Origin: Perna viridis
Lineage: Eukaryota
Reading direction: 5' to 3'
Length of the DNA: 64,000 nucleotides
NCBI GenBank assembly: GCA_037379345.1
Contig: CM074521.1
Coordinates: 186,001 to 250,000, forward strand
In this document: piece by piece, positions 5,301-62,185 of the stretch
Layout: the number at the start of each line of letters is the position of its first letter
Numbering within the stretch: the first letter of the stretch is position 1
Notes under the pieces: generated by a model
The model's input: the letters and a program-made list of their open reading frames with translations, nothing else
The model's database searches: none
Told to the model about the DNA's origin: nothing
Translations under genes and position numbers: made by a program

Positions 5301-6419
5301 ACTTCAATCATCCTTTAACATTGTTGTCAAGTTAAGGGATCCATATACATTCATATTATGTCTTTGGTTAGAAATACAATAAAACATTTGTAGCATTTAA
5401 TGAGCATGTGCATTATACTAAATCAACTCTAAAACATCGATTTAGCATAGTAGCAATGATGGATGCTTGTTGTTCATTGAATAACACAAATCATTCTTGT
5501 GATACTGATGATTATGACATTGATTACTTGCCAGCATAAATAGATAATATAACATCTCAAAAAAGACGTCTATTACCGGACAGGAAACAGTTTTCAATTA
5601 AGTCTGAAGTGTAAAAGGGTGATGGGTAGACCGGTCTGAAGTTGGAGTACAGTTCACTATTCACTATTGAAAAGTGAATAAAAACTAGTGTACTATTCAT
5701 TATTCGAACCTACATGAAACATCAGACAGGTCATTAAGTAGATATCTACTTCAAGACTAGCTAGATAAATATTTTCAAGATTATGAAATGAACAAGTCGT
5801 TAATATTTCAACGGTATCATTTATGATACTAGGTACACATGCTACAGATAAAATACACTCGGGGGCTCGGGGGAACTCCAATATTTCTTTGACCTCTTAT
5901 ATAAGGAGTGTTCCCTTGATTATGATACACTACTAGGACACATTTATTGACATACATGTATCATATTTTTCCCCACCTATTCGCATATTTGCAAGCTGGA
6001 AATGGAATATTAAGGAAGTGCCCCCAACTCCCACACCGAACAAATGAAAGATAAAATTATAACAATCATATTAATATATTAATGTTACAATACTTACAAT
6101 TAATATATAGCAAAATCAATATTTATTACATTTGAAAGTAAAAATTATCACGATGAAAAATGAAAAAAAAGAGAGAGGTTTAATTAATGATTTTGCATCT
6201 GCATCTACAACCACGTTCAATGAAGTGTGACTGATTTAACTCTCCACATAAAATAATAAAAGAATGAATAGACGAAGTCTGGCAAGCAGTTCATATACAT
6301 TAAGCACAAACAATCGTTATTTTAGCTGTGGGGTGGACACCAAGACGTGATTTTTACGCTGTTGCCGTACGTACGCAGCATGTCTTAACATTCCGTTCCC
6401 GTCAAAAATATGACAGTAT

Positions 6420-7010
6420 TTAGTAATATATTTATTCAGCAAAATACATATGTCATTTAATACAAAACAACTTTATATCTGACAGGATCTGGAAACAAGC
6501 CTCAAGGATTTTACAAGTCCGTCTCCTGCGAAATTGACAACAATATAATACAAAGATTACATGCTCTTAATACATGTAACATAATTTAAACTGTTAACAC
6601 ATCGTGGAAAAGGAGATGGTGAAGAGTTCAATTCGGAAAAAAATGAAATTAATCAAGTTGCAAGTCAATTAATAATTAATAATTAATAATTAATTAGAAT
6701 AAATTTCCGCACCTTGATAAAAACTGCTTATTTTGATCGTCGGTCATCTGATCAGAACCAAATAGTAAACTATTAGTATTTAACATAACTGGTAAATTTA
6801 TGGAAAATAGAGTCTCTGCGAAGTTCTCGATATCTTTCACATTGTAATAAGAAATGAGATATTGATTCACTTCTACCGCAAACGCAATTCGGTGAATCCA
6901 CTAGGTTGCGGGAAAAAAGATTCTTTCACAGTCTAGCATGTAAAATCTGTCCAATTCTTGATCCGCTATGATAATAGGCAGCATTGATATTACTATAACA
7001 ATCATCAATG
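6420..7010 (-). mobile_element. 3' fragment of a LINE (C-terminal Cys/His region plus 3' UTR)
   Basis: Minus strand reads RIGQILHARL...NLFSRNLVDSPNCVCGRSESISHFLLQCERYRELR, the CxC..E...H...C motif typical of the C-terminus of LINE ORF2 proteins. Confidence 0.75.
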
Positions 7011-8139
7011 AGGAAATACTGCAAAAGAAGCAAAAATACAAAATGTACTATTTTGTTTTGGAAAAATACTTGCGATTTAAAACAATACATGTCAGGAATT
7101 GAAAAACAAATACATTGTAAATATAGAGTGTTTATTAGCTAAATAAAAATTCTACAAGTTCTTCTCGCAGATCCGGTCCTGATTTCTGTAAAAGAAAACA
7201 AAGGTTACTATTACTCAGACAAAAAAAAAAAGCCCAAATGTTTCCTGAAATTTCTAACGCAAGAAAAAGACAAAGTAATATAACACTGTATCAAATGATA
7301 TTACTGCTAAGAAACAACTTCAGAGATATGTAATAGGCGTCATAATTGTAATCCTAAAGTTTTGGAATCTTAATTTCACACTAAAACAAAGAATGACTCT
7401 TACATTTCCTGGTATATTTATGTTATTCAAAAAATGAAGTGCTTTAGCTGTTGAAATAACAAATACTCCAGTCTCCCGCTGAAGTCCTATGTTCTAACCT
7501 CTGAAAGAATCAGTACACATCAAATGATAAAGTGTATAGATGTCCAAAAATTCCGGGTACAATTTCTGACTTCGAAATAGTATATTCAACGAAACTTTCT
7601 TCACTCATTTCGTACGTGTAAATCTAATTTTCGTAAGAAAAAAGTCTTTTCATTCAAACCGCCTTATCCCTGCTGTTCGTAAATACAATGGAATTCATCA
7701 TGACATGCATACAATGAAACGATATCACAAAAGCTTATTAATTTGATGTACAGAAATACAATCATATTCTTGCTTGTGTACTGTGCATTTTCCCATGGTA
7801 ATAGTTACCTTTGGACTATCAAATACTGCACGAGTCTCGCTCTACTTTTTCTTTATAACGTCTTATAATGTCTTATAATACAAGTTATAGCTAAAGATAA
7901 TCACTAAGTGAGAAATGCACACCCTCTTCCTCATTTGGTAAAATGCAACGTTTGACCTCCATTTTGATTCGGATCAAAATCAAAAATAGAAGGCGCACAT
8001 TGTGAATATGAGAAGTGTCGTCCAATTACATTCGGTGGTGTAGGAAGAGTAACGGATTAGAGGTGTTATTCTTCTGTGCAACGGAATGAAAGAAATAGAA
8101 AGTACAGACGGAAGAAAGGACAGACAGGCGGAATAAAAT

Positions 8140-8430
8140 TCAATTTTGTGAGACAAAAGTCTATTTTGTGTCACAAAATTCGCTTACTATATCCACTGAG
8201 AGACCTTCTTACAAAATCGTGATGAGAGAATTCATTTACATATCTAAAGGATTATGTAAATTAATTGCATACAAAATTGACTTTTGTCTCACAAAAGTGA
8301 ATTTTGTGTCACAGAATCGAATTTTGTGACACATAATTGAACTTTGTGACACAGAATTGACTTTTGTGACACAGAATTGAAAATTTATAATGTTATTTTT
8401 GTTGAACAAAATTCACTTTTGTCTGTACAA
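8140..8430. repeat. Short ~20-bp tandem array (AATTTTGTGACACAGAATTG-like) in an intron
   Basis: About 6 consecutive 20-bp units at 8270-8382, plus dispersed units at 8140-8180 and 8395-8430. Confidence 0.8.
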
Positions 8431-10469
8431 AACCACAAGAGTCCCATTCGACACCCTGTACGGACACCCCCATCACTCATAAACGAACCCTTATCAGGCT
8501 GGGATTCATATGGAGCTGCCACGGCGTACGTAATTTATTTTTTTTACTAAAGTCTCTTTATCTGAAGTCATGGATTCGCCCCAACGTAATGTAGATATTA
8601 GATATTAAATGTACCCATATAATACGTTCAAAAAGTAGTATAAGTACCTCATTACTTTCATTGCTTTTTGTTTTTCACTTTCGCTGATCAAATGCATTGG
8701 ATCAGCAATAAAAATTCGTCGTTTGATGAAATCAGTGACATAGAATAAATAAATAAGTGATTCCTGTTCGGAAAAAAAAACATTTAGATTGCTGCTACAT
8801 ATTATATTCTCAATATAATTCTGATACATTCTAAATGTCATGCAACATTGATGCCAACAGACAATAACAGTATAATGACTTGAATACGGATGAGACTTAG
8901 TATCCGTTTAAAACGGCAGTCTTGCTGAGGTTTTTTTTTACTCGTGCCGAATTCGTATTTTGTTTTTATTTCTAGTCAATCCACTTTAATTTTCTTCATC
9001 CTTATTATCATGATGTTTGATGTGTGTAGGCCTCGGTCATGATACGTGTCTCCCCCACCTATGATACGTTTCTTTCTCACTAATGATCCTGATAGTAATG
9101 CGACGAACAAGTAGTTATGTAATGGCAGACGAATGGGGGAATGAAAGAGTGACCTCATATATCACCAATAAATATACTGCCAATATATATTGGTTGCTCA
9201 AATGGAACGATTGCAGTATAAATATGTATATTACAGGAGAAATGACCGTATCGACAGCCATATTTACCAACATTTGCTGTTGTTGTTGCTTTTACCATAA
9301 CCAAAATACTTGATCTATCTTAGAAATCGTCTTTCTAATTTTCCACTTAAAACATTACCATTAAAGACCAATGATCCGACGTATGCACCGGTACGAAAAC
9401 GTATCTTTTGGATAAAATGTCAGTCTTGACATTTAGGTTTTGCCTGTTTTTCCATCTTGGAAAAAACGAATCTAAGAATAAGCACGAACCATCCAAACAT
9501 ACTTTTTCCAATGCCGCACCAATGACCTGAAGGAAAGTAAATTGAAACTCAATGTTGCGTTTCAACTGTTCTGTATCCGTTAATGATATGATTTTTTTCT
9601 CTTTACACCAAAAGTAAAAAAAAAAAAAAACTGAAAATGTGTTAAGTATCTACAAGATAAATGAATCATACAGCATTGTGTATTGCTTAGTTCCATTGTC
9701 TTTTGTTTGACTTGTACAAGTTTCAAGTTGTTGAACATTTGTGTATTGCTACTTATCAGTTTTATTAAAGGCAAATAGTCCTAATATTCTAATAACACTT
9801 TTTCAGTTCACTGGAAGATATTGTTGCGATAAATGCTATTTTGGCTCTAGCATTAGGTTTTGCCTGTTTTTCCATCTAGGAAAAAACGAATATAATAATA
9901 AGCACGAACCATCCAAACATACTTTTTCCAATGCCGAATCCAATTGCCAGCCTTTGGACAACTGTTCTCGTTTGATTATGACTTTGGTGTAATTTAACAA
10001 AACGGACAAATTGCCAACTAAATCCTTGTCGCTATCACTGAAAACTTCTCCCTGAAATACAACAAAACTTATCATTCTTTAATCATACCATTCTGAAATA
10101 AATGTAGTAAGACAAAGTAGGTTAAACAATGAGCAGAGGGTACTGTAGTTATGAAATTGAAGCAGGAAATATCAGGGTTAGGTGTGATATTCTGTGCAGA
10201 CATTCAATACTCGCATTATTATATCTCAAGTGGTACGAAATTTCGACAAAAATATAGCAAAGCGCCAATATTAGGACAATTTTTGGTACATCAAAGTCCT
10301 AATACGTACATGACCTGTACATGAAAACATAAACAAACTCTAAAGTCGAAAATAAAAAAATGAAAATAAAAATTGAATAAAAAATGATAATCACAAAAAA
10401 ATAACATTTATACTAAATTACTCTTTTTCATTATATTATCTTATCCGGCAAATACGTAATAGTCTTGTG

Positions 10470-10471
<2 letters not shown>

Positions 10472-10502
<31 letters not shown>
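10472..10502. repeat. (CA)n microsatellite
   Basis: Pure dinucleotide run. Confidence 0.95.
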
Positions 10503-10504
<2 letters not shown>

Positions 10505-11690
10505 TCATCAATAATGATGATATACCAGTACTACTTACCATACACGTTGAATTATCTTCTTCAGTTCTTGTGTAATTTAAATATTTAGTATAGGCAAATA
10601 TATACGAAGATTTCTAACAAAAAAGAACAAAAAAAAGGGAGAAACTATTAAAATACAGTTGTTGTAACCTGTACAGATACTGTGTGAACGATATAAAGAC
10701 TATAACAGCAAATATTAGTATTTACTTAGTTTCAAGTTAATTTTATCATTGGTAATATACAACAGAGGTAGGTCTAAAATTTATACTCCAATATTTGATT
10801 TGAATATAGTGTACAAATATTCAGTAGAGAGTTCAATTTTAAAACAGCCTGGAATTTGTTTAGAAACAATCATTTTTAACAGCAATTGCTGTAAAAGACC
10901 ACAGTTCTTTAAAAACACGTTTGTTTTAAAAGGGTTAATATATAGTAATAATCCATTATTACAGCTAAGTTCACTTGCAGAACATTTTACTAACTTGTAG
11001 TACTTCATTGTTTATAAACGAGACCGGCTTTCTTGATATTGACTTGTCATCGTAAGTATAAACAGACTGTCTTCAATGACTGCAGCCCAGTCTTAAATCA
11101 AACCATGTGTAAATATACAAACATCTGAGGAGTGCATAGAAATTTTCTAAGAACATAAAGAACAACTTAGTACTAACTAGATGTAATGTGCGTGATTTTT
11201 TTTTATTTTGTACTGGAGTATCCTGTTGGTTCTAAAATACAATATCATTAAATTTTGACATTAGAATATTCCAAATTTGCCAGACGGTATTTTTTCTAAA
11301 TTCAAATAGTTATGCAAGAACAAAAACTTGAGTTTGAAACCCGACCAAAATTCGATTCGTGTACATTCAAAACCAGTGGGTCTTTAATCTTGGATATTAA
11401 TATTCACCATGTTGCAAAGTGAAATAGTTAAATGTAATCATCACTGAATGAACATCAGCGGAATATTACAGCCACTTAACATTTAGGAGAATTTAAAAAA
11501 AAATCAGTGTATAATGTACCTTTATCAACAGTTTCTGTTAGAACATGCATTTATTCTTCTGTCTTGATCATGTTGACCCACATTTCCTGTTTACTATTTA
11601 AACATGTTAGAAGATCCATACAATCCAATGTTGTTTGAAATGCAATTTAGTTTCCATGCAGCAGCACTAACACGAAGCGATCCATATACA

Positions 11691-12450
11691 TGTTATGTCG
11701 TAAATTGTGTGGTCGGGACGGAGAGGTCGAGGGCATGGCATGGCTCCTCGAGATGTCGACTGCCTCCCCGTCCGACACGTTTTTATGAACAGTCACTATA
11801 ATTTTCGAGTGGAGTGACGGTGTTCTCTTGCTATGTCTGGTATGCATGTAGTTTGGTTTTGCGTCCCTGGCCTATCGGACACTGCATGCTTTCGAGGCTG
11901 GCCTGGTATATAAAGATATCAAGTTTTTACTCTTTATTTTCCTGAACGTACACAGTGATGCCAGGACTGGGTTGAGCTCTCTTAAAAACCCAGTATCACG
12001 TGCTGTCGGTCCTGTCTTTATTTACCAATGAAATCTCTTAATTTTATTTAATTTCCAAAGATGAATATACATAACGCCTTAGTATAGGAAACGTTTGGTT
12101 ATGTATATTGCATTTACTCCACCTTACTTTATCTTTTTATGTCTGATACTCTTTTAATTTATTTATCCTTAAACAATGGAAACTATTACCTAAAGCAATT
12201 ATTTTGCTAATCTCTATAAAGTGGCAGCTGTTTACCTAAATTATTAGCAAGACAATTGAGTAGGCACCAAAGAATTCAAACCTATTTAGTCTATCGACAC
12301 AGATTACGTATTATTTAATGTTACAAATATTTCTTTCTTTCGGCTAAATTTACAAATATGTCAAGACATTATCAATTTACTTAAGCTAAAATGTAATTTT
12401 ATTTATTTTTAATTTATGCTGAATCATATAGAATTTTACTGCATCACATA
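11691..12450. repeat. Copy A of a ~0.8-kb direct duplication (partner 16615-17429)
   Basis: Colinear high identity from TATGTCGTAAATTGTGTGG to GCATCACATA; copy A lacks ~55-60 bp present in copy B. Confidence 0.95.
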
Positions 12451-13045: not shown

Positions 13046-15691
13046 TCTTATGATGCATCCTATACTTGTCCTTATGATGCATCCTATACTTGTCCTTATG
13101 ATGCATCCTATACTTGTCCTTATGATGCACCCTATACTTGTCCTTATGATGCATCCTATACTTCAATACTTGTCCTTATGATGCATCCTACACTTGTCCT
13201 TATGATGCACCCTATACTTGTCCTTATGATGCATCCTATACTTGTCCTTATGATGCACCCTATACTTGTCCTTATGATGCATCCTATACTTGTCCTTATG
13301 ATACACCGTATACTTGTCCTTATGATGCATCCTATACTTGTCCTTATGATACACCCTATAGTTGTCCTTATGATGCATCCTATACTTGTCCTTATGATGC
13401 ATCCTATAGTTGTCCTTATGATGCATCCTATACTTGTCCTTATGATGCACCCTATACGTGTCCTTATGATGCATCCTATACTTGTTCTTATGATGCATCC
13501 TATACTTGTCCTTATGATGCATCCTATACTTGTCCTTATGATGCACCCTATACTGGCCCTTATGATGCATCCTATACTTGTTCCTATGATGCATCCTATA
13601 CTTGTCCTTATGATGCACCCTATACTTGTCCTTATGATGCATCCTATACTTGTCCTTATGATGCACCCTATACTTGTCCTTATGATGCATCCTATACTTG
13701 TTCTTATGGTGCATCCTATACTTGTCCTTATGATGCACCTTATACTTGTCCTTATGATGCACCCTATATTTGTCCTTATGATGCACCCTATACCTGTCCT
13801 TTTGATGCACCCTATACCTGTCCTTATGATGCATCCTATACCTGTCCTTATGATGCATCCTATACTTGTCCTTATGATGCACCCTATACTTGTCCTTATG
13901 ATGCATCCTATACTTGTCCTTATGATGCATCCTATACTTGTCCTTATGATGCATCCTATACTTGTCCTTATGATGCACCCTATACGTGTCCTTATGATGC
14001 ATCCTATACTTGTCCTTATGATGCACCCTATACTTGTCCTTATGATGCACCCTATACTTGTCCTTATGATGCACCCTATACCTGTCCTTATGATGCATCC
14101 TATACTTGTCCTTATGATGCATCCTATACTTCAATACTTGTCCTTATGATGCATCCTATACTTGTCCTTATTATGCATCCTATACTTGTCCTTATGATGC
14201 AACCTATACTTGTCCTTATGATGCACCCTATACTTGTCCTTATGATGCATCCTATACTTGTTCTTATGATGCATCCTATACTTGTCCTTATGATGCACCC
14301 TATACTTGTCCTTATGATGCATCCTATACTTGTCCTTATGATGCACCCTATACCTGTCCTTATGATGCATCCTATACTTCAATACTTGTCCTTATGATAC
14401 ATCCTATACCTGTCCTTATGATGCATCCTATACTTGTCCTTATGATGCATCCTATACTTGTCCTTATGATGCATCCTATACCTGTCCTTATGATGCATCC
14501 TATACTTCAATACTTGTCCTTATGATGCATCCTATACTTGTCCTGATGATGCATCCTATACTTGTCCTTATGATGCATCCTATACTTGTCCTTATGATGC
14601 ACCCTATACTTGTCCTTATGATGCATCCTATACTTGTTCTTATGATGCATCCTATACTTGTCCTTATGATGCACCCTATACTTGTCCTTATGATGCATCC
14701 TATACTTGTCCTTATGATGCACCCTATACCTGTCCTTATGATGCATCCTATACTTCAATACTTGTCCTTATGATGCATCCTATACTTCAATACTTGTCCT
14801 TATGATACATCCTATACCTGTCCTTATGATGCATCCTATACTTGTCCTTATGATGCATCCTATACCTGTCCTTATTATGCATCCTATACTTGTCCTTATG
14901 ATACATCCTATACCTGTCCTTATGATGCATCCTATACTTGTCCTTATGATGCATCCTATACCTGTCCTTATGATGCATCCTATACTTGTCCTTATGATGC
15001 ATCCTATACTTGTCCTTATGATGCATCCTATACCTGTCCTTATGATGCATCCTATACTTCAATACTTGTCCTTATGATACATCCTATACCTGTCCTTATG
15101 ATGCATCCTATACTTGTCCTTATGATGCATCCTATACCTGTCCTTATGATGCATTCTATACTTGTCCTTATGATGCATCCTATACCTGTCCTTATAATGC
15201 ATCCTTTATTTGTCCTTATGATGCATCCTATACCTGTCCTTATGATGCATCGTATACTTGTCCTTATGATGCACCCTATACCTGTCCTTATGATGCACCC
15301 TATACTTGTCCTTATGATGCACCCTATACCTGTCCTTATGATGCATCCTATACTTCAATGCTTGTCCTTATGATGCATCCTATACTTGTCCTTATGATGC
15401 ATCCTATACCTGTCCTTATGATGCATCCTATACTTCAATACTTGTCCTTATGATACATCCTATACCTGTCCTTATGATGCATCCTATACTTGTCCTTATG
15501 ATGCATCCTATACTTGTCCTTATGATGCATTCTATACTTGTCCTTATGATGCACCCTATACCTGTCCTTATGATGCATCCTTTACTTGTCCTTATGATGC
15601 ACCCTATACTTGTCGTTATGATGCATCCTTTACTTGTCCTTATGATGCACCCTATACCTGTCCTTATGATGCATCCTATATTGGTCCTCAT
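13046..15691. repeat. 24-bp minisatellite (CTTATGATGCATCCTATACTTGTC)n, roughly 105-110 units
   Basis: Continuous 24-bp period with variant units (CAC/CAT, CCT/CTT) and a recurrent 8-bp insertion (ATACTTCA). Confidence 0.99.
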
Positions 15692-16614
15692 GGCAGAAAA
15701 TCTCTACTAAATCAATATTTAACTCAACATTTACATAGCAACCGCTGTAGCAACAATGTTTTTACTTGAACCCTTTTATGCACATTTTCACACTGTCCCT
15801 ATGGGACAAGTGCCTCTACCTTGTAGGTATCTGCTTCTTATTTATAATGATACATTTAAAAGAACTTAACATGATTATTTGTTTTATTCTTGATGTTTAA
15901 GTTACATTATTTTACTAAGTTATTTATAAGACACACATTATTTCACTGCCAGTTCTCACTAAAACAAAAGGATTATTCCGAATTTCTTGAGTTATCGCCC
16001 TTCAGTTATATGAATTTGAACTTAATCTTTATAAATTTAACATTAGTGTGCAATTTACTATTTCGCATCTATACTTTTTGACTCTTTTATATATATGTAT
16101 CTTATTCATTTTAAAATATGCAAATTAATATCTATTCTACAGCAGTAATTGCTTTTGAAATGTTACTGAAATTTTAGCTTTAAAACACAATTTAAAAGTT
16201 ACATTAATGTTTATGAATTTCAAAATTTACAACTTTAACTTGTTTAGTTCTTGCCTTATGAAGTGAAATAAAATTAAGTTTATCACTTACTGGTTTTTAA
16301 GATCACGTGCATTAAATACAACATAGAGAACACAAAACAACATATTAACATAATGTATGGAAAACATATATACAAAATGGTACATATCAGCAAATTGTCC
16401 AAAATAAAAGATAATCCGTATTTCATCGGCAAATTCCTTCGGTTTTTACTTCTTTTACGCGACACATTACCTGTAAAATTCAAAGTTCAGAAATAAAATA
16501 ACTGCATTTTGTAATGCCATAGTCCAAAAATTAACACAAAAAAAAACTTTTCAATCTCTCCACCGCTTACAAATGAAACAGATACCAGGAGATCTTCCTC
16601 TCTTCTGCACAATC

Positions 16615-17429
16615 TGCTATGTCGTAAATTGTGTGGTCGGAACGGAGAGGTCGAGGGCATGGCATGGCTCCTCGAGATGTCGACTGCCTCCCCGTCCGAC
16701 ACGTTTTTATGAACTCCATCTTTTCGAGTGACATATTTTGTTGTTTGTTATTTGGGGAGAACTCGCTCGTGGTAGAGTCTTGGTGGAGCGGTGGTGTTTT
16801 CTTGCTATGACTGGTATGCATGTAGTTTGGTTTTGTGTCCCTGGCCCATTGGACACTGCATGCTTTCGAGGCTGGCCTGGTATATAAAGATATCAAGTTT
16901 GTACTCTTTATTGTCCTGAACGTACACAGTAATACCAGGGCTGGGTTGAGCTCTCTTAAAAACCCAGTATCACGTGCTGTCGGACCTGTCTTTATTTACC
17001 AATGAAATCTCTTAATTTTATTTAATTTCCAAAGATGAATATACATAACGCCTTAGTATAGGAAACGTTTGGTTATGTAATATTACGTTTACTCCAACTT
17101 ACTTTATCTTTTTATGTCTGATACTCTTTTAATTTATTTATCCTTAAACAATGGAAACTACTACCTAAAGCAATTAAATATATTTTGCTAATCTCTATAA
17201 AGTGTCAGTTGTTTACCTAAATTATTAGCAAGACAATTGAGCAGGCACCAAAGAATTCAAACCTATTTAGTCTATCGTCACTGATTACGTATTATTTAAT
17301 GTTACAAATATTACTTTCTTTCGGCTAAATTTACAAATATGTCCAGACATTATCAATTTACTTAGCTAAAATGCAATTTTATTTATTTTAATTTATGCTG
17401 AATCATATAGAATTTTATTGCATCACATA
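16615..17429. repeat. Copy B of the ~0.8-kb direct duplication; overlaps a degenerate minus-strand exon (~16915-16586)
   Basis: See copy A. The minus strand has TTCAG|GACAATAAAGAG ... CTCCTG|GTATCT, with two in-frame stops in that frame. Confidence 0.9.
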
Positions 17430-20339: not shown

Positions 20340-20680
20340 TATTTCAACTATTACACTTGCATGCACTTCTAAGGCACAGACCACAGATTTATACCATTCC
20401 TAAGAAATGTATTATCGAAATTCCTGTGACATCGTCTATACGCAAAGTTTCATTTTCATCTCCGGGCTTCCGATGTCGCGCAGTTACCATAAAAAAATAC
20501 ATGATACAGTGGGTGATAGAACAGGGTGGTTTCGGGGGTTCAGCTTCCTTTTTGCTAAAAGTTAAGCAAAACAATGATCGACAAATATTAGCCAGGAACG
20601 AGGAGTGTAGTCCTTGCCTGTCGCCTGGAACCTCTTTCTTTATGTAAGTATCTTGATCGGAACCACTGCCCCCTTTTTGT
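20340..20680 (+). mobile_element. Highly degenerate LINE RT fragment
   Basis: Broken motifs YR-IPVTSSIRKV, QGGF and ERGV*...CLSP occur in RT order. Confidence 0.45.
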
Positions 20681-20682
20681 GG

Positions 20683-21065
20683 AAGAGTAATCAAGGGAAC
20701 CAAGGTTATAGCGGTAATCAAAAGAATGTAATCCAGGGACAAAGACCAGACATGGAAAACAGACATGGAAAACAGACATACACAACAAAGAACATAAAGT
20801 AACTAAAACCACACATACAAAGTAACAAAAGTAAATGAGCAACTCGGACTCTACTTAAACCTGGGAGCATGGACCAGGTGCACCGGTAGGGTAAGCGTCC
20901 TCTGCTTTTCTAGAAACACCCGCCAAGTTGCTCATAAAAAGTCAAGTCCGGGGTAGACAAACGAGGAAAGGAAAACCATGACCCGTTGAATAAATCAGTT
21001 TTCATGGTGCTGATGGATACACCATAACGATCCACGAGTTCATGATGACGACCATAAAACTTCTG
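20683..21065 (-). mobile_element. 3' end of the Penelope-like element (same family as 31390-32808)
   Basis: Reverse complement aligns with ~32440-32808. Confidence 0.9.
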
Positions 21066-21699
21066 TAGTGGAAACTAGTATATGGGTCCGCCAGGCCCTG
21101 CATGAAATTTCTGAAAGACAACCCTTCCAATTGCCAATGCATTTCTTTTCTCATTTTTTTAGCGATGACTACAAGTATTCAAAATCTCGGAGGGTTTTTA
21201 TTTCTAGCTAAACATCGAATGGTTTATTATACTTTTAAGAGTATTGTATATGTGCTAACATATTGAATACAGAATAATGAACGATTGGTTTATTATGGTA
21301 AATGTATAAAATTAAACAGGTACAAATGTACTGGAAATGTTAGAGGTAAATTATTTTGTTTTAATTGGATCGTTGTTAATATCAACTAAATTAATCATCA
21401 TATTTAGTTTGTTGTAAAAGTTGTTTATTGGCGTAAATAGTATAGAACTGAAGATGACTAATTCGAAATACCTATAAAGTGGACCAAAACTATTGCAACT
21501 ATCTGCATTTGAAACTTAATGGGGTATGATGGTATGCTGGGACTGTTTTCCTGTGGTATAAGATAATTTCAGATGCTAACAGGCACTTAAACCCAAAAGC
21601 TCTGGCAACTGCTATATCAGTCCTGATCTTCTATCTAAATTGATAAAAAGTGATACTCCTGGTTGTTTCCGAATCTTCATCGTTCATGTCGAGGAAAGT

Positions 21700-23300
21700 G
21701 TAAAAACCTACTTACAAATAATTTGAACTCTAATGTTGATTCTTTGAAGATTTTCTGTAAACCTCTTGAGCTGTAGGAATAACAATGTAGGAATATCAAT
21801 TAGTCACTAGGTTCGTTGATGCGGTGTTCTCTTTTGGCAGTTATAACAATTTCTATATAATTTGTAGAGTATTTTCATTAATAAAAAATAAATATTAAAG
21901 AGTCATTTGATTTATAATGGTGAATACTGTCCTGAGCACATAACGTTTTGCACGAAGTCGCCAGTGCAATTTCATATTCTGCGATGGATGATATTGAAAT
22001 AATTGAAACAATTAAAATGAACGAGCATTTTTTTATAACTACACGATAACCATATATGTGTTTGAAAAAAAAGAACTATTTGTGGTAAAATGTAAACCAT
22101 CGTGACGATGTCTAATTACTTATATAAGTATAATTTTTTTAAAATTTATATTATGTCGATTAAATTTAATTAGTAGATTATCATCTCCTCACGTCCATAA
22201 AAATGGACAAAAATTTAAAAAAAGGCGGGAATTTCGAAATAAGGAATCTGAGATATTATAGTACGTAAATCTTTTATTATTCCTTGATGACCAAAACAAT
22301 ATTCCTTCTTTTAAACTGAAATGGCTATGGATGTAGGACATATCTAGACTCAAAATAGCTGAAATTAGGCTAGCACATATCTGTCGGAAATAAAAAAGTC
22401 AGAAATAAAATCCTCCCACCGCCGATATTTTTGAAGGTTGGATGAAAACCTACAATCTAAGTTTACTTGGCCTTAATATTAATCAGGTTATTTACACTGC
22501 ATGGTCGTCTATTAATGCTTCGGTTTTCAACGTCTCATAAAGACAATCAACCACGTGAGGCTGTGGTTTTAGTGTCCCAAGATCGAGAGAGAAAATCAAA
22601 TGCTGCTGCTCTACATTAAATCTTTTCTGAAAAAAGACAGTCAATACTTTGCCTTCTATAAAATAAATACTATCAGAAATAATGAAAATAATAACAATTC
22701 TTTGATTTACCCGTTTTTTCTATTGGATTGGGCGTAATTATAATAATTAAGTAAGTAACTATAGCCCAAATTATTTAAAAAAAAAAACAACAAAAAAAAC
22801 TTTTCTACCTGGATTTAAATTTTCGGTTCATTTATAAATTTCTATGGCAAATAATTATCATCATTAGGAAGAGGATTATATAATCCATGTATCACAGATT
22901 TTATTTTAATGTTCATGGGCAAAATAGCTAGCCCTGTTACATGTAAACAAGCATTGTTAAAAGTTCTATCATGTATCCTAAGTGTTTCTTTACGAAAACA
23001 AACTGTGTTCATAATAAAGCAAATCAAGCCAATGAAAGTGCATTTTAAACTGGTCTCAACAGAAAGTGGACTGAATTTTCCAATCAGTGACAACCGCCTG
23101 AGAAATATCAGGAGAAATTGATAGGGGTCCTCTTTTCTCCGACTTCAATTGAAATATCTGCATCACTGGCAACTATTGCCTGAAAATATAGATAAATCAT
23201 TGAACTTATATTTAAATGTATATGAAAATCATTATGGAATGCATTTATCAAATGTTTCATGACAGGGTAATGTTCAGGTGACTTTCCTTGGCTGAAAAAC
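21700..23300 (-). pseudogene. Ubiquitin-specific protease (peptidase C19)-like relic, interrupted by other repeats
   Basis: Minus strand: SRRKEDPYQFLLIFLRRL (~23145-23090; cf. USP QEDAxEFL), TSLKCTF (~23040), then in one frame CYNCQKRTPHQRT**LIDIPTLLFLQLKRFTENLQRINIRV (~21848-21725; cf. USP CxxC...LPxxLxxxLKRF). Cys and His boxes not found. Confidence 0.55.
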
Positions 23301-24301: not shown

Positions 24302-25689
24302 TTATTTGCTGGTCTTGTTTTTCTTTCCTGTCTTTTTTGTGGTGTCTTTTATATGTAGTAATAAACAAAGCTCCGTGAGAGTTTTTGAATTTATTTTTAG
24401 ACATTGGGTCCTTGATAATTTCTTTACTACAATTTTAAGTTGGTCTGCACTTAATTTTTTCTTCTTCATTCCTTTTAACTGGGAAAAGAAATTATAACGA
24501 GAAAAAAGTTATGTTTAAGACGCACATAAAAATATTAGGTACAGAAACTGCGTAACCATTTTCTACATCCATCCTTTGAACGCTTTACTTACATTTAATA
24601 GACCTAATTCAGAGTGCCAAAACGTATGGGAGGTTGCTAATACAACGGCTAGACAAACAATTATCACTAAAGCACAATTTTCAATACTTAGCAAAACGCC
24701 TATCAGGGTGCAGCATGAAGCAACCGTTGTTAATATCTACATGAAAAAGTAAATGCTTTCCAAGGCACAGCTTGATAAACCGCAGTGGTCAAACCAAGAA
24801 CAGTCGAGGAAAATATACAAGCGAACTTCTGTGCTATGACTATCCAAAAAGGATTACATGTATAGAGCAAGCACATGTATTGTACACTATTAACTAAACA
24901 TTGTTTTAGATTATTCGTACTAGTAAAAATACCTTCGATAAAAGGAACTCTCTCAAATTGCAGGTATAATCAATTCATCGATACCATTACAGTTCCTAAA
25001 ATACAATCATCCGAAAAAATCCATTAAAAATAAGAAAGTTAAGAATAAGAAGTACAATATTCCTCTTAGATATTGCTTTTCTAAGGGCTACACAATATGT
25101 ATAGTAAATAGAGGGCATCTCGGTTGATATAGCATGTACGGGGGACCCAGAGTGTCAATTATGGGAGCTATGGACGTAAACCATTATAACTATGAACACT
25201 TTGCACATAGTGTCATCCCTTAATTAGTCCTATCTTAAGGCTACACAGTAGGTATTCCTTTTCTCCTTTTAGGAAAGTGCGTAAAAATACTTGTTTGACG
25301 ATAAAACTCCGAAAAGGAAACAAAAATGGTTATGGATTTCTGTATAATTGACATAATATCATTTCTGTGGGTAAGAACTAATTAACAAGATGTAACGAAG
25401 ATTTTATTGGGCACTAAATTACAAAAATTACATAGAAAAATCCCGAAATCGGAGTAGAATCGTGCTTTTAAAAGAAATGACCAGTTGTTAATTCATATTT
25501 TAAATCGTCGACTCGACATAATACATTACATTGTACATGTATTTAATATTATGATGAAATGATAACTTACCTTGGAATTAATTTGCATGTGATGACACCG
25601 TCCACAAAACATGCATCGGCACTAAGGATTGTCAGTAGCTTTATAAAGGTTCTAGGACTGCGATACCCCGTTGAGGTGTGCTTTGACAT
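24302..25689 (-). pseudogene. Putative small 3-exon gene or pseudogene for a secreted Cys-containing protein
   Basis: Exon 25689-25571 (AAAATG; MSKH...TFIKLLTILSADACFVDGVITCKLIP; GTAAGT donor), exon 24995-24933 (AG/GT bounded), exon 24478-24302 (strong polypyrimidine-CAG acceptor). One extra base in exon 2 is needed for read-through. Confidence 0.35.
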
Positions 25690-28600
25690 TTTTATTTTCT
25701 ACTTTAATCGGATAAGAATGGGCACATAAATTTTACACTTCAGTATTTAAGCAAACTCTTTATTTTGTTATCATGACAGATTACTGCCATCACCTTTAAA
25801 CTCATCTCTTATTATGGAAAGAAAATCTTGTGATATTCATAATCCTTGCAATTGGTGGGTGATAATTACGTAAAAGTCCATAAACTGTATGTGTACCCGG
25901 TCTGAATCTCCACCTAATGTAGTATACATATGAACAACTACAATATATAATAGGAAGACATTTTTTCAAGGTGACACCGTGCAATCACGGCTTGGTATCA
26001 TAGATCAGCCTTGGTCTCGGCAAATCATTAAATTAATCTGACCTGATAAAGTGCAATCGTGGATAAAAGAAAATATCAATATTCATATTACCTGGGATAC
26101 CGACGGTGACTGTAGGTCCACCCCCACCATAATATTCACAACTCCAAAACATCACCCATCACGCTTAGGGGTAACTACTCTGTGAAATATATTATTCGAC
26201 CTATGCACAGTATATTCTAGGTTAAAAATATATAATTCACAAAGACAAAAAAGTGATTTATTTTCTATGTGACGATTTGTTTTTGTTTTTTGTTTAATTT
26301 TTTTTAATGAAGAGTAAATATAGAGTGAAAACTTCATAACGATGTAAAAACTGTGAAAAACGCAAAGCAATTTTGTTGTTATCTGCACTCTAACGCCCTG
26401 GACCACTTCATATTCTTTTAATGAACAAGATTGACACATATCCAATATGGACACACATGTTGAACATAGTCAATTATTCAGCAGCAATATATATATAAGC
26501 ACAAAAACGTACTTTCAAAAATTTGTAACCCACATTAATATTATTGAAGTTCAGTCGCCAAAACGAAGATTTGCGACTTGTGTTTTTTTTTATTTTTCTT
26601 CTTGTGAACGTGAAGATGTCCGAGCGATGACTCGACGACCGTTTATTTGATTCATACCAAAGTAAAAAATCAAGCATACTTAGTGCATGCAATTTATGAA
26701 TTTATGAAAAAGCCACCAAAAGAAAACCCGAAAAATGAGAAAACAATCTATAAAATTACTGGAACTATTTAGTTACAAGTGTGAAAGTAAATATAAATAG
26801 CAACTATTGACTTGCTGCCATCACAGGCGTCAACACTTTCTTTAATAAAGCCGCATTTTATTCAAAATGGCCATCAAATCGGCAAAATGCCAACATTGTT
26901 TGATTAAGATGAAATTTAATTTCCAGGTTTAACGTGAACACGGCCTTCTAAATTCAATATCGGCTTCGTAGTTAGGTTGATTCCGACTATTTGCAGGTTT
27001 TGCCAACTTTTGTGTTTTGCATGCATGCAAACGCAGTATCACTTGTTTCATTTTGTCTTTTAGTTGCTTCGTTAATGTTTATGCAGTTATATTGAAGACA
27101 AGTAATATCCGTATTGATTACGATTAAATTATGACTATATTTAGTATAATATACAATAATATAAACCGACTTTAGAACAAAAGTATTTTTAAGCAGTTGT
27201 ACTGATAAAAATGATCACATATTCTAGTAGACATGGATTGTGAGCCAGTCCGTTAGATTGAAAATCTTTCTTTTCCTTGTTTGTTTCTTTCTTTGTCTTT
27301 TTTGATAAATACATGTATTTTTTTCCATTCTTACTGATTGTCTTTTTACCAGAAACATATTTTTGCTCAGTGGAAATAAATGCTACGTAGCACGCATAAT
27401 GTGCATGTACTCCATTTTATATTACGTAAACTCTCTTGTTTATTTTCCATGTAAACAACGTCAGCTCTAGAGATGCAACTTCAAAATAAGATGCAGTGCC
27501 TTAGAATATTCAGTAGGCTAATTTTAACAGGAATGATTGGCAAACGAATATATCAAGCGCTACGTTACACGTCAAAAGTCATATTATACAGACATGTGCC
27601 ATGTGGATAGATAACGTTCACATAGCCACAATATCAACGGTGAACATAATCGTTTTCTATCGTAGATTTATTTGTCAAATGTAAATGTGTCATTGTCTAT
27701 GTAGTCATAAATTTATATGATTAAATTCATTTGCCATTAATTATTAATTACAAATACGTAAAAAATCATGGATAAATACGTAATATGCCGACAGCAAATA
27801 CAGAAAAAAGACAACTTTCTTCTGGAATCATTTATCTCCCGTATAAACCAAACATATGTCTTAAGTGAACAAAAGTTAGGGTTTAAAGTTGATTTGGTTT
27901 CCACATCCATCCATCCATCATAAAATTTTCTTACCATCGACGGTACCATCGTTACCACCATCAAAAATGTTATCAAACTTTAAAGTTATGAAAAATGAAT
28001 AGTAAACTAGTTTACTATTCACTTTTCAATAGTGAATAATGTCCGGTCATTATTTTCTAGTTTCTAAGACTCTTCGGGAATATTTGGCAAATAGCGACAA
28101 ATGTAGTGATCGTAGGTATCTGAAGTCACCAGGTGATACGGGAGGTCAATGTAGGGAACATCAACACCGCTCTCGACAATCACTATCCCTTGTTTTAAGT
28201 AACTAATTATGAGGCACCTGTTTTGGTTATTTTATGATCTTTGTTGTATGTGTCTGTTTTCCGTGTCTGGTTTTTGTCCCTAGATTACATTCTTTTGATC
28301 ACGCTAGAATGAATCTTTGTTCCATTGATTACTCTTTCAATACTTTTAATGTTTATGTGTCCACGATGTGCAAATAGTCATGGCTTCGTAGGTCACAAAT
28401 TTCAGTTGCAAACGAAATATTTATTTTATTTTAACCTTTTAAGTGGACAAGAAGAAACGAAATATAAATTTTATTTAAACCTTATAAGAGGACAAAAAGA
28501 GTGTGCAATTCCACTGTTTTGTATTAAAAATTTGAAGTACATGCGATACTATCATATAATAAGAAAATCAGAATTTTTTAATTATCTCAATAAACAAAAA

Positions 28601-29540
28601 ATAGAAAAGAATTAATTGGCGTCATTGAAAATATACAGTAATTTTCAATGCATTTTTAATTTTTTTCCTGCTTCAAGAAATGTTCAAAGAAAAGTTGGAG
28701 GAAGGTTGCATGCATTGACAAGTGTACTTTTGCGTATCTCTTCGCTGTTCCACATGCTGTTTAAACAACCTTAACCGCCTTGAAAAAAATATAGCCTCCG
28801 CTGTATTGTTCATTTGCAGCATAGCTTTTCTTAGACAGGGAAGGCATTCATATTTTGAATTTTTGGAAAGCTGTCACCTGCGTTTATGCCCCAAGTTATG
28901 TGTAAAATTATCCCACCATCCGTGGAGAATTGTTAAAATTCGGGATTTTATATATATTCTGAAAAATTACCCGCTTAATTTTAAAATGATATAGCCGGAG
29001 CAGCTTGGAAAGTTAAAAGTGAGGGTTAAAAAATGTTGGTGTTCGCTTCTATAGCAATGTATATGCCTACACCATATTACTTTATATGGTAGAATGAAAT
29101 TTTCTACTACCTTTTCCTCTTGTTTAGTTCGTCTGGTTAGTTGTAAGGAACACTGACAGACATTACATTCCAACCATATTTTGGGGTCCATTTAAACTGA
29201 AACCTTACCGTGGGATTTCTTAAAGGATCTACCGGAAAATTGATACAGCTCTGAAATTGTATACACTTCCCATTTTAGCCATATAGCATGCCAAAACGCC
29301 CATTCTCTATTGTTCCCATCCCCATTCCCTACAGAAAATTCTCAATATAAAAATTCCCATCCCCATAGAATCCCATGGCTTTTTTCATCAAGTATTTTCT
29401 TTGTACTTAATACTTTAACATTTAAAGTGTTATTTTGAATATAAATTGATATTCCCGACTTTCGATATATGCAGTTATCTAACCTGAATCGAGTTATCGT
29501 CCTTGACAGTAGGTATATCTACTTCCGTTATCGACCAAGA

Positions 29541-32500
29541 ATGGGGAAAACTACTGCGCTATCAAAGATTGCCACAATACCAAGGGCGTAATAGGACGTT
29601 TTGGTATACCAGTGAAGCTACACCATCTCACAAAGGATAAAGATGTACGCGCAGCGTTGCTACGTGCCATCAGTCGTAAAGATTTTAAGCCAAGCAGCTA
29701 CACGCAGGTAAACAGGAAACGAGCTATATAATGTGTGAATTGACCAAACATACCCACACCCTAGAAGGATTTATTTCTTTTTATCCAACTACCTAACTCA
29801 TTCATTAAGTGTGCTATATTTCCCTTGCATTACTACTATAGAAAAGTGAATTGGAAATGTGAAATGCACATGACTGGTGATATAAAAAATGTACATTGAT
29901 AATTGTATTACATAATCTACATTGTCCCTCATTTCTTTTGGTTCTGTGTTTGCCTTTAGGCACTAGCTTGAAGGTTGTGTCTTAGGGTTTAAAGTGTGAC
30001 TGTTTTAAGTTCACATATACTCCACTTCGCCTCAGCCTGTTTATCAGGGTTTTTTAAATCATTTTTTTAAGCTAAAAAATCCTTTAACAAAATACCATTT
30101 TATTCATATTGTTCTGTACTACAATTCTTATTTTTTTAAATGAAAACAAGCTGAGGTGAAAATGAAGTATGCACAGTTTTCCTACATATGTTTTTAGCCA
30201 GAATTATGTTTTGAATAATAAGAGGCTGGTTATTAAAGATACATTGTATATGTCCAACTGAGTACTATATTTCATTTTATTGTGCTTCTTGGTCTGAACA
30301 CTCTATATTAGTGTACCAAACCTTGATCTTTCAGTGTATTTGGCCCTTGTCAGGTTTCAAGCCTTTATATGTATGATTTTAGTTACTTTATATTCTTTGT
30401 CGTGTATGTCTGTTTTCCTAGTCTGGTCTTTGTCCCTGGATTACATTATTTTGATTACCGCCATAATCTTGGTTTCCTTGATCACTCTGTTACATACATT
30501 TGCTTTTCTCATGGCCATTAAGATAAATGTATCAAATTGACAGTAGAGACTGTATAATTATATTTTGTTTGCAGGTTTTCTCAGATCACTTCCCAGGTGG
30601 TAGAGAGAAAACCTGGTGCCACAAAGTTCCAACTTTGTTCCTGCCGCAGAAGATGACACCAGATACACAAAGCCCAGGAAATCAGTAAATAGCAACAAGC
30701 ATAGGTTTTGGTTCAGTAGTCTTGGTGGTGAAGATGTAAATGACAACATGGAAGTCACTTACACAAATCCAGGATTGTTTGAACATGAAATTCATGCGTA
30801 AGGTTTTATATTGCATTTTTATGTAAAAAAATCATAAAAGTAATGTATATATTTTATTTCGATACAGACCTCAGTACTGTACATGTAAGATCTTTTTTTC
30901 TAAAATCAGACACATTGTACATAATACTTCATGTACATGCCTTATATTTCACCATATCTGTTCTTTTTGCAATGTGTTTCCAGCTGTGGTTATATGTGTA
31001 TTTAATGCAAGTCTGTAACCCAGACCATTTTTCTATTAATTCTAAAGTACACAGCAATTAATCAATTCTATTAGATATCACTATGTATATTGTAAATACC
31101 TTTAGGGAATAGCATATTTCAGTTATTACATTTATTCTTTATTTTGCCGGTATTTTATCTTCAGTTATTCCAAGAGTAATACTGAGCAAGGTATCAATTT
31201 TATGTACACAAGAGGAAGATCCATCCAATGATTAGTGAGGAATAATGTCTTGGTAAATAAAAGTTCTACGGAATTTTATCATCATTTAACACAAAAACCA
31301 TCAGTTTGTGATCTTGACTTCATATTGCACGTGCAATATATGTGGACATGTAATGTTTTTATACTTAATATTGACCTGTCAAGCCATTATTACAAGGACG
31401 ATGATTGTGATTTACCGTCTATGTACTGGATTCCTAAACTTCACAAGAATCCATACAAACAACTTTTCATAGATAGATTTGCAATATGTACCACCAAACC
31501 TCTTTCAAAACTTTTAACTTCTATACCCACAACTGTCAAAGAGGGTCTGCAGTCCTACCACAACACTTGTTACTCCCGTAGTGGTATTAATTCAATGTGG
31601 ATCCTGAAAAATTCGAAAGATCTTTTGGAGACAATCAGTTCAAGACTATTATCTGAATATAATAGCATTAAAACCTTTGATTTGTCAACACGGTATACGT
31701 CTATTCCCCATACTCAGTCCCGACTTAAAAACATCATGCATCGTGTTTTTCCAAAAAAGATGGTACACCTATATACAAATATATAGTTCTTGGTAGAGAT
31801 TCCTCATACTTTGTAAGAAATAATTCCAAATCATCTTCCAAATATACAGAGGAAGATGTTTACAAAATGCTGGAATTTTTAATCGACAATATATTTGTCC
31901 AGTGTGGTGGACATGTTTTTCAATAGACGGTCTGCATTCCAATGGGAACAAATTGTGCTCCTTTACTTGCTGACATATTCCTTCACTCTTATGAGGCTGA
32001 CTTTATAGCTGCTCTGATCAAAAAGAAAGAATATCGTTTGGCTAGATCCTTCATTCTGAATTTCCGCTATATAGATGACGTATTATCTTTCAACAATCCT
32101 AATTTCGGGGATTTGATACATCGCATCTACCCAAAAAGGATACTACAGACACTGTAAAATCAGCCTCATATCTTGACCTACACTTAGAAATCGATGGTAA
32201 GGGAAAACTATTGACCAAACTTTACGACAAACGTGATGACTTTTCATTCAGAATTGTCAACTTTCCTTCATCTGTGGCAACATCCCTTTGGCTCCTGCGT
32301 ATGGCGTGTTCATATTACAACTCATACGTTATGCCAGAGCTTGCCGAAACTACGCAGACTTTTTGTATCGCGCTAGAACTCTAACAAATAGGCTTCTGGA
32401 ACAGGGTTATATGTTGCTACAAGAATGAAGTTATCACTACAGAAGTTTTATGGCTGTCATCAAGAACTCGTGCATCGTTATGGTGTATCTATCACCACCA

Positions 32501-34284
32501 CGAACACTGATTTACTCAACGGGTCATAGTTTTCCTTTTCTCGTTCGTCTACCCCGGACTTGACTTTTTATGAGCAACTCGGCGGGTGTTTCTAGAAAAG
32601 CAGAGGACGCTTACCCTACCGATGCACCTGGTCCATGCTCCCAGTTTTTAGTGGAGTCCGAGTTGCTCATTTACTTTTGTTACTTTGTATGCATGATTTT
32701 AGTTACTTTATATTTTTTGTTGTGTATGTCTGTTTTCTATGTCTGGTCTTTGTCCCTGGATTAAATTCTTTTGATTACCGCTATAACCTTGGTTCCATTA
32801 ATTACTCTTACAATAACTACATACATATATAATTAAAATTATTTCTATGTGTAATAAAAGAAATATTTAAGATTTTCTAACATATTCTCGTGTCTGGGAC
32901 TACATTGAATGTATTAATCAAGATAGAAAATCATGCCTAATGGAAATAAGTACAAAGTGTACATGTACATGTAATATCTCTTAAAGAGAGTTAAAAGAGT
33001 AACGGAATACATTTTGCCCTTTATGAACCTTGTTACTTAATTGATTTCTCATAAAATCTAAACGTTGTATTTCTTTGATTTTGAAGTCCTAACTGAACAT
33101 TCTGTAGCTGAGTAGCAGCTTATTTTTTCTGCCAATTTGGAGCTTTCCCAACCTTACTCCTTTATTTTGTGTAAACTTATAAAATTAATGACAGTTCATC
33201 TACCTTTTTAGTCTATAAAGCATTTTGTAAATTGTTTTTCATTCACTGCAAAATATCATTAAGTTTAGTGTTGTAGTTGTATAAACAATTGCACATGTAA
33301 TGTTTTTATTAATTATTTAGTAATTCAAAGAACGAAATCTATGAAAATATATCCAGTGATGAAAAATGTAAAATGGTTGATAAAAGTGTACAAGTTTGTT
33401 GTCCAGAAATTACCATAGAAGATATCAGAGATTCAGATGTTCAGGTTCTTTTTTATGCTGGTCAGCCGAACTATAATACATTCATTGCATTATATGAGAG
33501 CTTACTGAAGATTGGTGCAGACAGAATGGTTGTCGAAAATGGAACTTTAATGCCAAAAACCCTCTAATCGTAAACTTAGGCTCCTGAATGAATTTCTGAT
33601 GGTGCTAATGAGAACAAGACTTGACCTACTTTTAAATGATTTAGAAGTTAGATCAGCTGTCAGCTGGAAGAATTTGAAGAATATTTAATTCCTGGATAAA
33701 TTTAATGGTTCAAGGATTACGATCAACAGTTTTTATGCATCCTTTAGAGATAATGCAGTCAAAAATTCCAAAGTGCTTTAAATTTTTTCCGATACCAGAG
33801 TTGTATTGGACAGTACAGAGATTTTCACCAAAACAAATTACAAACAAACTCTAATTACAAATCTCATAATACTTTCAAGTCCCTGATTAGTGTAAATATG
33901 ACCGGAGCAGTTGTGTTTGTCTCTCCTTTACGTCTGATGTTTATATAACCAGAAACAGTGGTCTCATTGATTTGTTACAAATTGGGGATGCAGGTATGGT
34001 TCATAAGGTTTTTTTTCCATCTCCATACAGATTTGAATAAGAAAGGAGTTAAACTTTACTGTCCACCATTTTTATCAGCAGTCAACAAACAGTTTACAAA
34101 GTCTGAAATTGAATTTACCAGGAGGGTAGCTTCTGCCAGAATTAACGTTGAACGAAAAACGGAACAGATAAAAAACTCCAGAATATTGCAGGGAATTATG
34201 CCAATAAGTTTGAGTTGTATTGCAAACTCAAGTTTCTTTGTGTGCAGTGCTTTGACAAACTTGCTTCCAGCTTTGGTTAAGTGA
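29541..34284 (+). pseudogene. Intron-containing THAP-domain Harbinger-type (DDE_Tnp_4-like) transposase pseudogene
   Basis: Exon 29541-29707 YCAIKDCHN...RAISRKDFKPSSYTQ splices to 30575 VFSDHFPGG (THAP). Last exon ~33321-34284 has EFLMVLMRTRL, RVVLDSTEIF, NYKSHNTFK, and PPFL...QFTKSEIEFTRRVASARINVER..QIK..RILQG. Frameshifted. Confidence 0.88.
31390..32808 (+). mobile_element. 5'-truncated Penelope-like retroelement RT nested in a transposase intron; no GIY-YIG after the RT (Naiad/Chlamys-like organisation)
   Basis: LPSMYWIPKLHKNPYK, IKTFDLSTRYTSIPH, IPMGTNCAPLLAD, FRYIDD, YLDLHLEI, TKLYDKRDDF, QLIRYARAC. The ORF ends near 32529 and runs straight into a ~280-bp 3' UTR. Confidence 0.9.
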
Positions 34285-34689
34285 ATAATGCATTATACAA
34301 TAAAATTCAACATTTATTACATTTAAACATGTTGGAAGAAATTCTTTTAAAAAAAAGTTGTGATCAGAATTTGAATAGATGCGATAACAATAAGGTCCTG
34401 CATCATGTACATGTACACAAGTTCTGTTGCGGTGGTTTTGAATGAATATTCTAATTGGTTGATTTTCAATAATATTTTCTACAAATCATTGAACCTATTG
34501 ATTATGATATTACTATATCATTGCATATATATTTACATATTAAGGTCCTAAACAAGTATTGTTTCTCACTTTTGAGCAGACCAGAATTTCAAAATTGCCA
34601 CCAAAGGAGATCAAAGTTTGTAACTACTTGATTACATGAATAGTACCATAGATTTATACTAAAATAAAGTAATACATTTAAAAGTATAT

Positions 34690-61649: not shown

Positions 61650-62185
61650 GTACGTAATACAATGACTAGTGGTTACATGTAACCCTTTAGTGGTGTCGGA
61701 GGATTATCTGCAGGTACGTAATACAATGACTAGTGGTTACATGTAACCCTTTAGTGGTATCGGAGGATTATCTGCAGGTACGTAATACAATGACTAGTGG
61801 TTACATGTAACCCTTTAGTGGTATCGGAGGATTATCTGAAGGTAAGTAGATACAGTGACTAACGGTTTACCGCCTGGTAGTGTCGTATGATTATCTGTGT
61901 AACTACAATGACCAGTAGTTTAACCCCCTGGTGGTTTTGTACGAATTATCTGGAAGTAAGTATTGACAAGTGATAAACACCATTGTGATGTTGGATGGTT
62001 ATCTGCAGTTACGTAACTACAATATTTAGTGTGGTACCCGTTGATTTTGTCGGTGGATACCTGCAGGTACATAGCTACAATGACTAGTGTCCCCTTGTGA
62101 TGTCGAAGGATTAACTACTGGTACCTAACTACAGTGACTTGTGCTTTTACCCTTTGTAGTTGTTGGATTATCTTAAGGTACGTAT
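61606..62185 (+). repeat. 64-bp minisatellite built from exon 14 and its splice donor
   Basis: AG|GT recurs at 61650, 61714, 61778 and 61842 (period 64), followed by about 5 more diverged units. Confidence 0.9.

Follow-up and report, generated by a model that had tools for sequence, protein, structure and literature searches.

A probable multi-exon pseudogene of SUMO-protease (C48) type on the minus strand of a Perna viridis contig

Exons and C48 identity of the minus-strand gene

We analysed a 64,000-nucleotide (nt) stretch of Perna viridis DNA (GenBank assembly GCA_037379345.1, contig CM074521.1, positions 186,001 to 250,000 of the forward strand), hereafter called the window, which is 31-37% GC and contains zero N. 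On its minus strand seven exons, here named A to G and running from 10613 to 7135, together rebuild a Ulp1/SENP (C48) domain. An earlier note on this DNA had proposed a hidden multi-exon gene of this kind, and the exons it claimed (A, B, C, D, F and G) are all present on that strand. Splice sites were scored with our own rough matrix, which gives 4.8 as the 99th percentile of 3468 AGs on the minus strand.

Exon A (10613-10539; 25 codons, phase 0-0) lies directly ahead of the C48 core, with an acceptor of 7.1 and a donor of 6.1. The domain starts in exon B (10051 to about 9935), whose acceptor scores 4.9 and whose frame is open to 9839, its own donor being gone; the W-Q-L-D-S at its end joins the V-I of exon C to form the familiar W..D.VI motif. 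Exon C (9526-9359; 56 codons, phase 0-0, acceptor 6.0) carries the catalytic His at 9373-9371 and then Trp, the pair filling 9373-9368, and exon D (8739-8648; 92 nt, phase 0-2) carries the catalytic Asp at 8703-8701. Between D and F we place a likely exon E (7890-7809; 82 nt, phase 2-0), which holds two in-frame stops, has the strongest donor in that interval (4.5) and ranks second among 82 phase-compatible candidates. Exon F (7500-7404) measures 97 nt where 99 are expected, with a frameshift at the Cys site, and the last exon, G (7185-7135), consists of 16 codons and a TAA behind an acceptor of 10.3, the top value among the scored sites. Just downstream of this stop codon, at 6776-6925 on the minus strand, stands a weak zf-RVT match (E=0.0062), perhaps a retroelement tail.

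Scored alone, exon C matched Peptidase_C48 as its sole Pfam family (E=0.0033, 17.7 bits), which was the lowest E-value among the seven open reading frames (ORFs) with a Pfam match at E<=0.02 out of 275 scanned (at least 38 amino acids, both strands, 1-31 kb). Five of the six PDB matches of exon C at E<=10 were Ulp2 or SENP chains (Ulp2, SENP7, SENP5 and SENP3, E 0.03-1.4; best E=0.03), the nearest being Ulp2 and SENP7 at E 0.03-0.24, and the predicted fold of exon C by itself reached a mean pLDDT of 43. The exons other than C gave zero Pfam family match when scanned singly, and exons D and F found no PDB match at E<=10; the case for C48 therefore turns on the order and spacing of motifs, all of which were composed after the locus had been seen. 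The strict Asp-strand motif has a single occurrence in the window, and its first base, 8739, directly follows a TAT described below. Among 6000 simulated stretches of 2.5 kb, none contained it followed in order by the D.G motif (singly, the two motifs arose in 16 and 217).

The distance from His to Asp is 17 residues through the TAT junction and 25 through the acceptor at 8764, while that from Asp to the Cys site is 56 residues with exon E and 26 without it. SENP1 has His533 and Asp550, a spacing of 17, and Gln597 and Cys603, with an Asp-Cys spacing of 53, according to PMC9268427. The catalytic His-Trp pair is described as a C48 hallmark in PMC1847702 and PMC6759571, and yeast Ulp2, with a Gln six residues before its Cys, has D-C-G-V-H-V-I aligned where the locus has D-x-G-V-F-V-I. 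With the weak Pfam match on exon C, the ordered motifs and the SENP1-like spacings taken together, the C48 identity put forward in the earlier note is very likely correct, as judged from sequence.

Lesions in the domain and the upstream exons

Exon F reads GAC-T-GGA at 7473-7467, and restoring two nucleotides there (97 to 99 nt) recovers the motif and also brings exon G back into phase. A 2-bp deletion in the Cys codon had been claimed; the break is seen, and we infer the lost bases to be GT, no intact homologue that shows them having been found. If the original codon was TGT, the change from TGTG to TG would be an ordinary and common dinucleotide slippage, and 16 such dinucleotide-repeat sites occur within the 592 nt of six exons. 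Translation that enters through the 7500 acceptor stops 8 codons past the break. The earlier emphasis on a hit to the nucleophile itself is not sustained: the deletion is one among about five lesions in a domain of 227 codons, and it shifts the frame and does not resemble the clean substitution expected for a pseudo-enzyme. The expected oxyanion Gln is missing, as had been stated, with Arg standing six residues before the Cys site, the position of Gln597 in SENP1; a Gln or Asn close to the Cys is given as a hallmark in PMC1847702. None of the readings we built puts a Cys at the catalytic site. With Cys and Gln both absent, and the frame of the ancestral exons closed by two stops and a frameshift, the locus would be a descendant of C48 without the marks of an active member, and on its sequence it should make no protease today.

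Two lesions had been listed for the domain, and both are present, but more exist: the exon E stops, a 92-bp internal copy and probable breaks further upstream. The second of the two is an acceptor mutated to TAT at 8742-8740, a credible lesion since the site would score 5.8 as AG. It can nevertheless be bypassed, because an intact AG at 8765-8764 on the same strand, 24 nt upstream and in frame, scores 8.0 and adds 8 residues, so that the whole arrangement spans 8740-8765. The two stops of the likely exon E are a TAA at 7865-7863 and a TAG at 7844-7842, both in frame. Further, a 92-bp minus-strand copy at 9944-9853 repeats the 5' portion of exon C (9523-9433; 94.6% identity, E=9e-34; four mismatches over the ungapped 86 nt). 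At the expected place of the B donor, exon B passes directly into this copy over a short ATTGG common to both, and the copy replaces that donor; the simplest reading would be a templated copy that overwrote it. A donor inside the copy (9922, score 2.3) could still splice in frame. The intron between D and E contains clustered near-palindromic 20-bp repeats in both orientations (8135-8432), probably a small non-autonomous element, which supply cryptic acceptors at 8422 and 8073.

The gene probably extends upstream to about 24.5-25.7 kb, all of the following being on the minus strand. A probable exon of about 1 kb (24478-23450), Lys-rich and then of Asp/Glu/Gly-rich low complexity, switches frame three times (about 24345, 23790 and 23712) and contains a single TGA in frame (about 23507). 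It is followed by probable exons within 23050-23291, starting at 23291 and 23179 (acceptors 4.9 and 5.3) and with uncertain ends, the one from 23179 carrying a frameshift near 23135, and by probable exons at 22626-22496 (phase 0-2, acceptor 6.0) and 21770-21716 (phase 2-0), the latter fitting the phase of exon A over an 11-kb intron. Five further breaks are counted in these probable exons. A possible first exon at 25571-25689 has an ATG and a very strong donor (8.0); its phase misfits the next acceptor and its membership is doubtful. The phases along the chain largely match, and the chain ends in phase 0, like the start of exon A, to which it is presumably linked across the 11-kb intron. A Pfam family scan of the upstream exons gave no match. 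By eye we had suspected a second C48-like start in exons 22626-21716, which was rejected on a best blastp value of E=7.6, and, near 18.76 kb, a segment resembling exon B, which was rejected as absent from the tblastx matches within the window.

Relatives, mobile DNA and neighbouring features

Searches for relatives returned little. With exon C as query, a word-indexed search of longer proteins scored none of 6 candidates; when the exon B frame and exon C were aligned to form the query, none of 103 scored. HMMER against 1.84 billion cluster representatives gave four matches only and no real relative, the four being rejected as long repeat proteins of unrelated families. Nothing matched by tblastn against plasmids and phages, NCBIfam gave one irrelevant match among five queries, the Rfam scan of 1-30 kb gave none, and no second copy of the gene was seen within the 64-kb window. 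As the queries were short, these null searches exclude only close relatives. The searched set nevertheless includes Mytilus proteins, and the lack of any relative there argues against a conserved housekeeping orthologue, in agreement with the earlier statement that the protein is far from housekeeping SENPs. Our literature searches found nothing on Ulp1 expansion in Mytilus or bivalve Peptidase_C48 families, nor on SENP intron positions or Zisupton domains, which is not proof of absence. Its one oddity is the lack of any close relative so far known.

The domain compares best with the ULP/SENP family (clan CE, family C48, PF02902) of SENP1/2 type, with which it shares His-Trp, an Asp 17 residues on and D-x-G-V-F-V-I, as well as a C-terminal domain behind a long low-complexity part. 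Unlike the SENPs it has a broken Cys codon, an Arg in the place of the oxyanion Gln, and both stops and frameshifts, and its divergence is such that no SENP was retrieved with it from large protein sets. The introns of human SENP1 presumably lie at the same four places and in the same phases as those of the catalytic half here: four residues after His in phase 0, one in phase 2, ten before Cys in phase 0 and about 21 after it in phase 0. Such positions would mean descent at the DNA level from a gene of SENP1/2 type, by duplication or capture. A variable N-terminus followed by a C-terminal catalytic domain is the usual ULP layout (PMC6759571).

A mobile origin had also been suggested, reasonably in view of the literature: PMC2836005 and PMC2528002 describe Ginger1, Mutator and CACTA transposons that carry Ulp1 domains. 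In the window, however, the idea finds no support beyond one ambiguous inverted pair. No transposase, integrase or SWIM/PHD match was found in the 275 ORFs; the minus-strand scan omitted six ORFs of low complexity at 23.5-24.3 kb, out of 132 listed, and covered one of the six separately, and the transposase scan lay outside the ORFs of a tandem array at 13.0-15.7 kb and the plus-strand ORFs at 23.4-24.2 kb. Likewise no Gypsy-like integrase was found in minus-strand ORFs of at least 38 amino acids, a scan by which shorter or more decayed fragments would be missed. The inverted pair has arms at 5655-5705 and 27990-28041 (90% over 52 nt, E=1e-13) and brackets all putative exons. Both arms are self-palindromic, they have only two long copies in the window, and they align with each other in direct orientation as well (85% over 39 nt). 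Target-site duplications were not seen beside them, and as Ginger1 ends they do not begin with TGT and have CCGG adjoining one arm only.

Ginger1 (PMC2836005) shares with the locus a C-terminal Ulp1 domain, introns and an invertebrate genome; the locus differs in having no detected Gypsy-like integrase, no TGT ends and no CCGG/CCGT duplication on both sides, and in spanning 22 kb against 2.6-7 kb. The ULP-carrying Mutator (KAONASHI) and CACTA elements of PMC2528002 share a divergent ULP domain amid mobile DNA, and ULP-carrying Mutator elements are mentioned for hydra and lancelet in PMC2836005; at our locus there is no transposase on either strand from 1-31 kb. We likewise found no SWIM, SAP or transposase match that would point to the Zisupton/KDZ elements. 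These too probably carry a SUMO-protease domain.

Other mobile DNA is present nearby. At 29421-37411 lies a decayed ISL2EU-like element (PIF/Harbinger group) with imperfect inverted ends of about 110 bp, comprising THAP (29513-29728, plus strand, E=0.0016), DDE_Tnp_4 (33949-34281, plus strand, E=1e-8) and YqaJ (34786-35376, minus strand, E=3e-10); its ends, at about 29.4 and 37.4 kb, leave the C48 gene outside. A dispersed repeat with reverse-transcriptase-like frames, which we take to be Penelope-like, covers 31232-32830, with pieces at 20680-21076, 43927-44349, 48144-48275 and 53705-54326; it contains a YIDD motif at 31927-32157 and sits inside the ISL2EU-like element and the long intron, and a Pfam scan of its frame at 31232-31783 gave no match.

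The window further contains an intact-looking multi-exon gene on the plus strand (45206-61046, continuing beyond the window), which matches an EGF/fn3 receptor tyrosine kinase family expanded in Mytilus. Its ten exon matches cover residues 47-859 of P0006 without stop or frameshift, and its exon at 55529-56449 retrieved 26 proteins (24 from Mytilus, one from Saccostrea and one with an incomplete name; best identity 59%), matches that by themselves point to a mytilid mussel as the probable host, perhaps other than Mytilus. An intron of this gene holds a minus-strand RNase H fragment of a long terminal repeat (LTR) retroelement (45564-45824; RT_RNaseH, E=6e-12), and two inverted pairs at 55024-55273 and 58863-59106 (165 nt at 85% and 41 nt at 90%) flank two of its exons. 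At 13047-15692 a 24-bp unit is repeated 107 times with 32-bp variants and several frames open, between direct copies of about 800 bp that are 89% identical (11691-12450 and 16615-17429). Two smaller repeats are a pair of perfectly abutting 46-bp inverted arms (262-353, 96% complementary) and 3.7 copies of a 64-bp unit at 97% identity (61626-61861).

Origin of the locus

The explanation we favour, and consider fairly probable, is an unprocessed pseudogene of a divergent SENP-like gene that originated by duplication in the host. A multi-exon gene of SUMO-protease type, with a long acidic N-terminal part and a C-terminal C48 domain, would have arisen by DNA-level duplication of a SENP-type gene, and the duplicate would then have diverged strongly and lost its function. 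Random damage would have followed, comprising two nonsense codons, a dead acceptor, the internal 92-bp copy and several frameshifts, with the 2-bp loss in the Cys codon as one of these hits, most likely through TG slippage. The exons, lesions, spacings and weak C48 match in this scheme are observed in the sequence, and His, Trp and Asp are still intact at the locus. Which bases were lost, whether exon E and the exons further upstream belong to the gene, the slippage and the preference for host duplication over transposon carriage are matters of interpretation.

Several observations weigh against this explanation. Descent from a host SENP leans on the presumed intron positions of human SENP1, as no homologue was found, and genes of the Ulp1 type borne by transposons can have introns too (0-4 in Ginger1; PMC2836005). 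The acceptor of exon E is weak (-2.4), and in a composition test the amino acids of most exons were not distinct from those of non-coding frames. Exon C's 17.7 bits fall under the curated Pfam cut-off of 20.7, and a PadR match at E=0.0054 in the same scan shows that chance matches come close to the C48 score. A looser chain of three motifs turned up in 11 of 300 simulated windows, and stop-free readings with GT-AG introns only can be assembled.

The sub-threshold score, the loose chain, the lack of matches for the other exons and the post hoc motifs might suggest that the C48 relic is confined to exon C, or that all is chance, the downstream exons being patterns read into AT-rich DNA. We regard this as very improbable, for the window holds the strict Asp motif only once, with its first base right at the TAT junction, the joint control gave none in 6000, the phases fit and the spacings agree with SENP1. 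The stop-free readings, for their part, allow a live gene whose alternative splicing yields a pseudo-protease lacking the Cys, such as a SUMO binder: two run from exon A to the stop via the donor at 9922 and the acceptor at 8764, finishing through an acceptor at 7494 or a cryptic exon at 8073-8030, and they keep His, Trp and Asp. Each of them requires at least three non-ancestral sites, the 7494 acceptor scores -6.2, 8 residues are inserted in the strand after the His, exon E or the whole start of the Cys helix is dropped, and the 1-kb upstream exon has its three frameshifts and a stop, so we give a live gene hardly any credence. Assembly errors in an otherwise intact gene seem to us the least probable of all. 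Several upstream frame switches do fall at A runs, but lesions such as the two nonsense codons, the TAT acceptor and the 92-bp copy with its divergence are generally atypical of read errors, and the ten clean exon matches of the neighbouring kinase gene indicate that the damage is not general assembly noise.

The more serious competitor to host duplication is that a Mutator-, Ginger1-, CACTA- or Zisupton-like DNA transposon carried the same dead gene as cargo, the element perhaps being the 22 kb between the 52-bp arms, with a transposase that has decayed or was never present on this copy. The known Ulp1 cargo of such elements, the distance of the sequence from every protein searched, the enclosure of all putative exons by a pair with only two long copies in the window and the abundance of mobile DNA in the region speak for it. 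The empty scan of 275 ORFs, the self-palindromic arms with their direct-orientation match and neither target-site duplication nor TGT ends, the nearby THAP/DDE/YqaJ element that has its own inverted ends and excludes the gene, and the failure to find a second copy inside the window speak against it, and we consider cargo rather unlikely. We hold it for improbable that the locus is what remains of a so far undescribed family of very divergent SENP-like genes, specific to mussels, carried on a non-autonomous element of about 22 kb with short palindromic ends and with intact members elsewhere in the genome. Such a family would have an acidic N-terminus and Arg in place of the oxyanion Gln, and would thus have been non-canonical or catalytically dead before it decayed.

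Taken by itself the locus is of little consequence, dead SENP-like copies being ordinary, and with about ten lesions present no selection need be invoked for a frameshift that falls in the catalytic codon. Since no relative was retrieved from either protein collection, mussels may possess an unannotated and divergent C48 family. PMC2836005 raises the question of why SUMO proteases are carried by transposons, and intact Arg-for-Gln copies or a family of transposon cargo, if real, would provide an animal test case for it.

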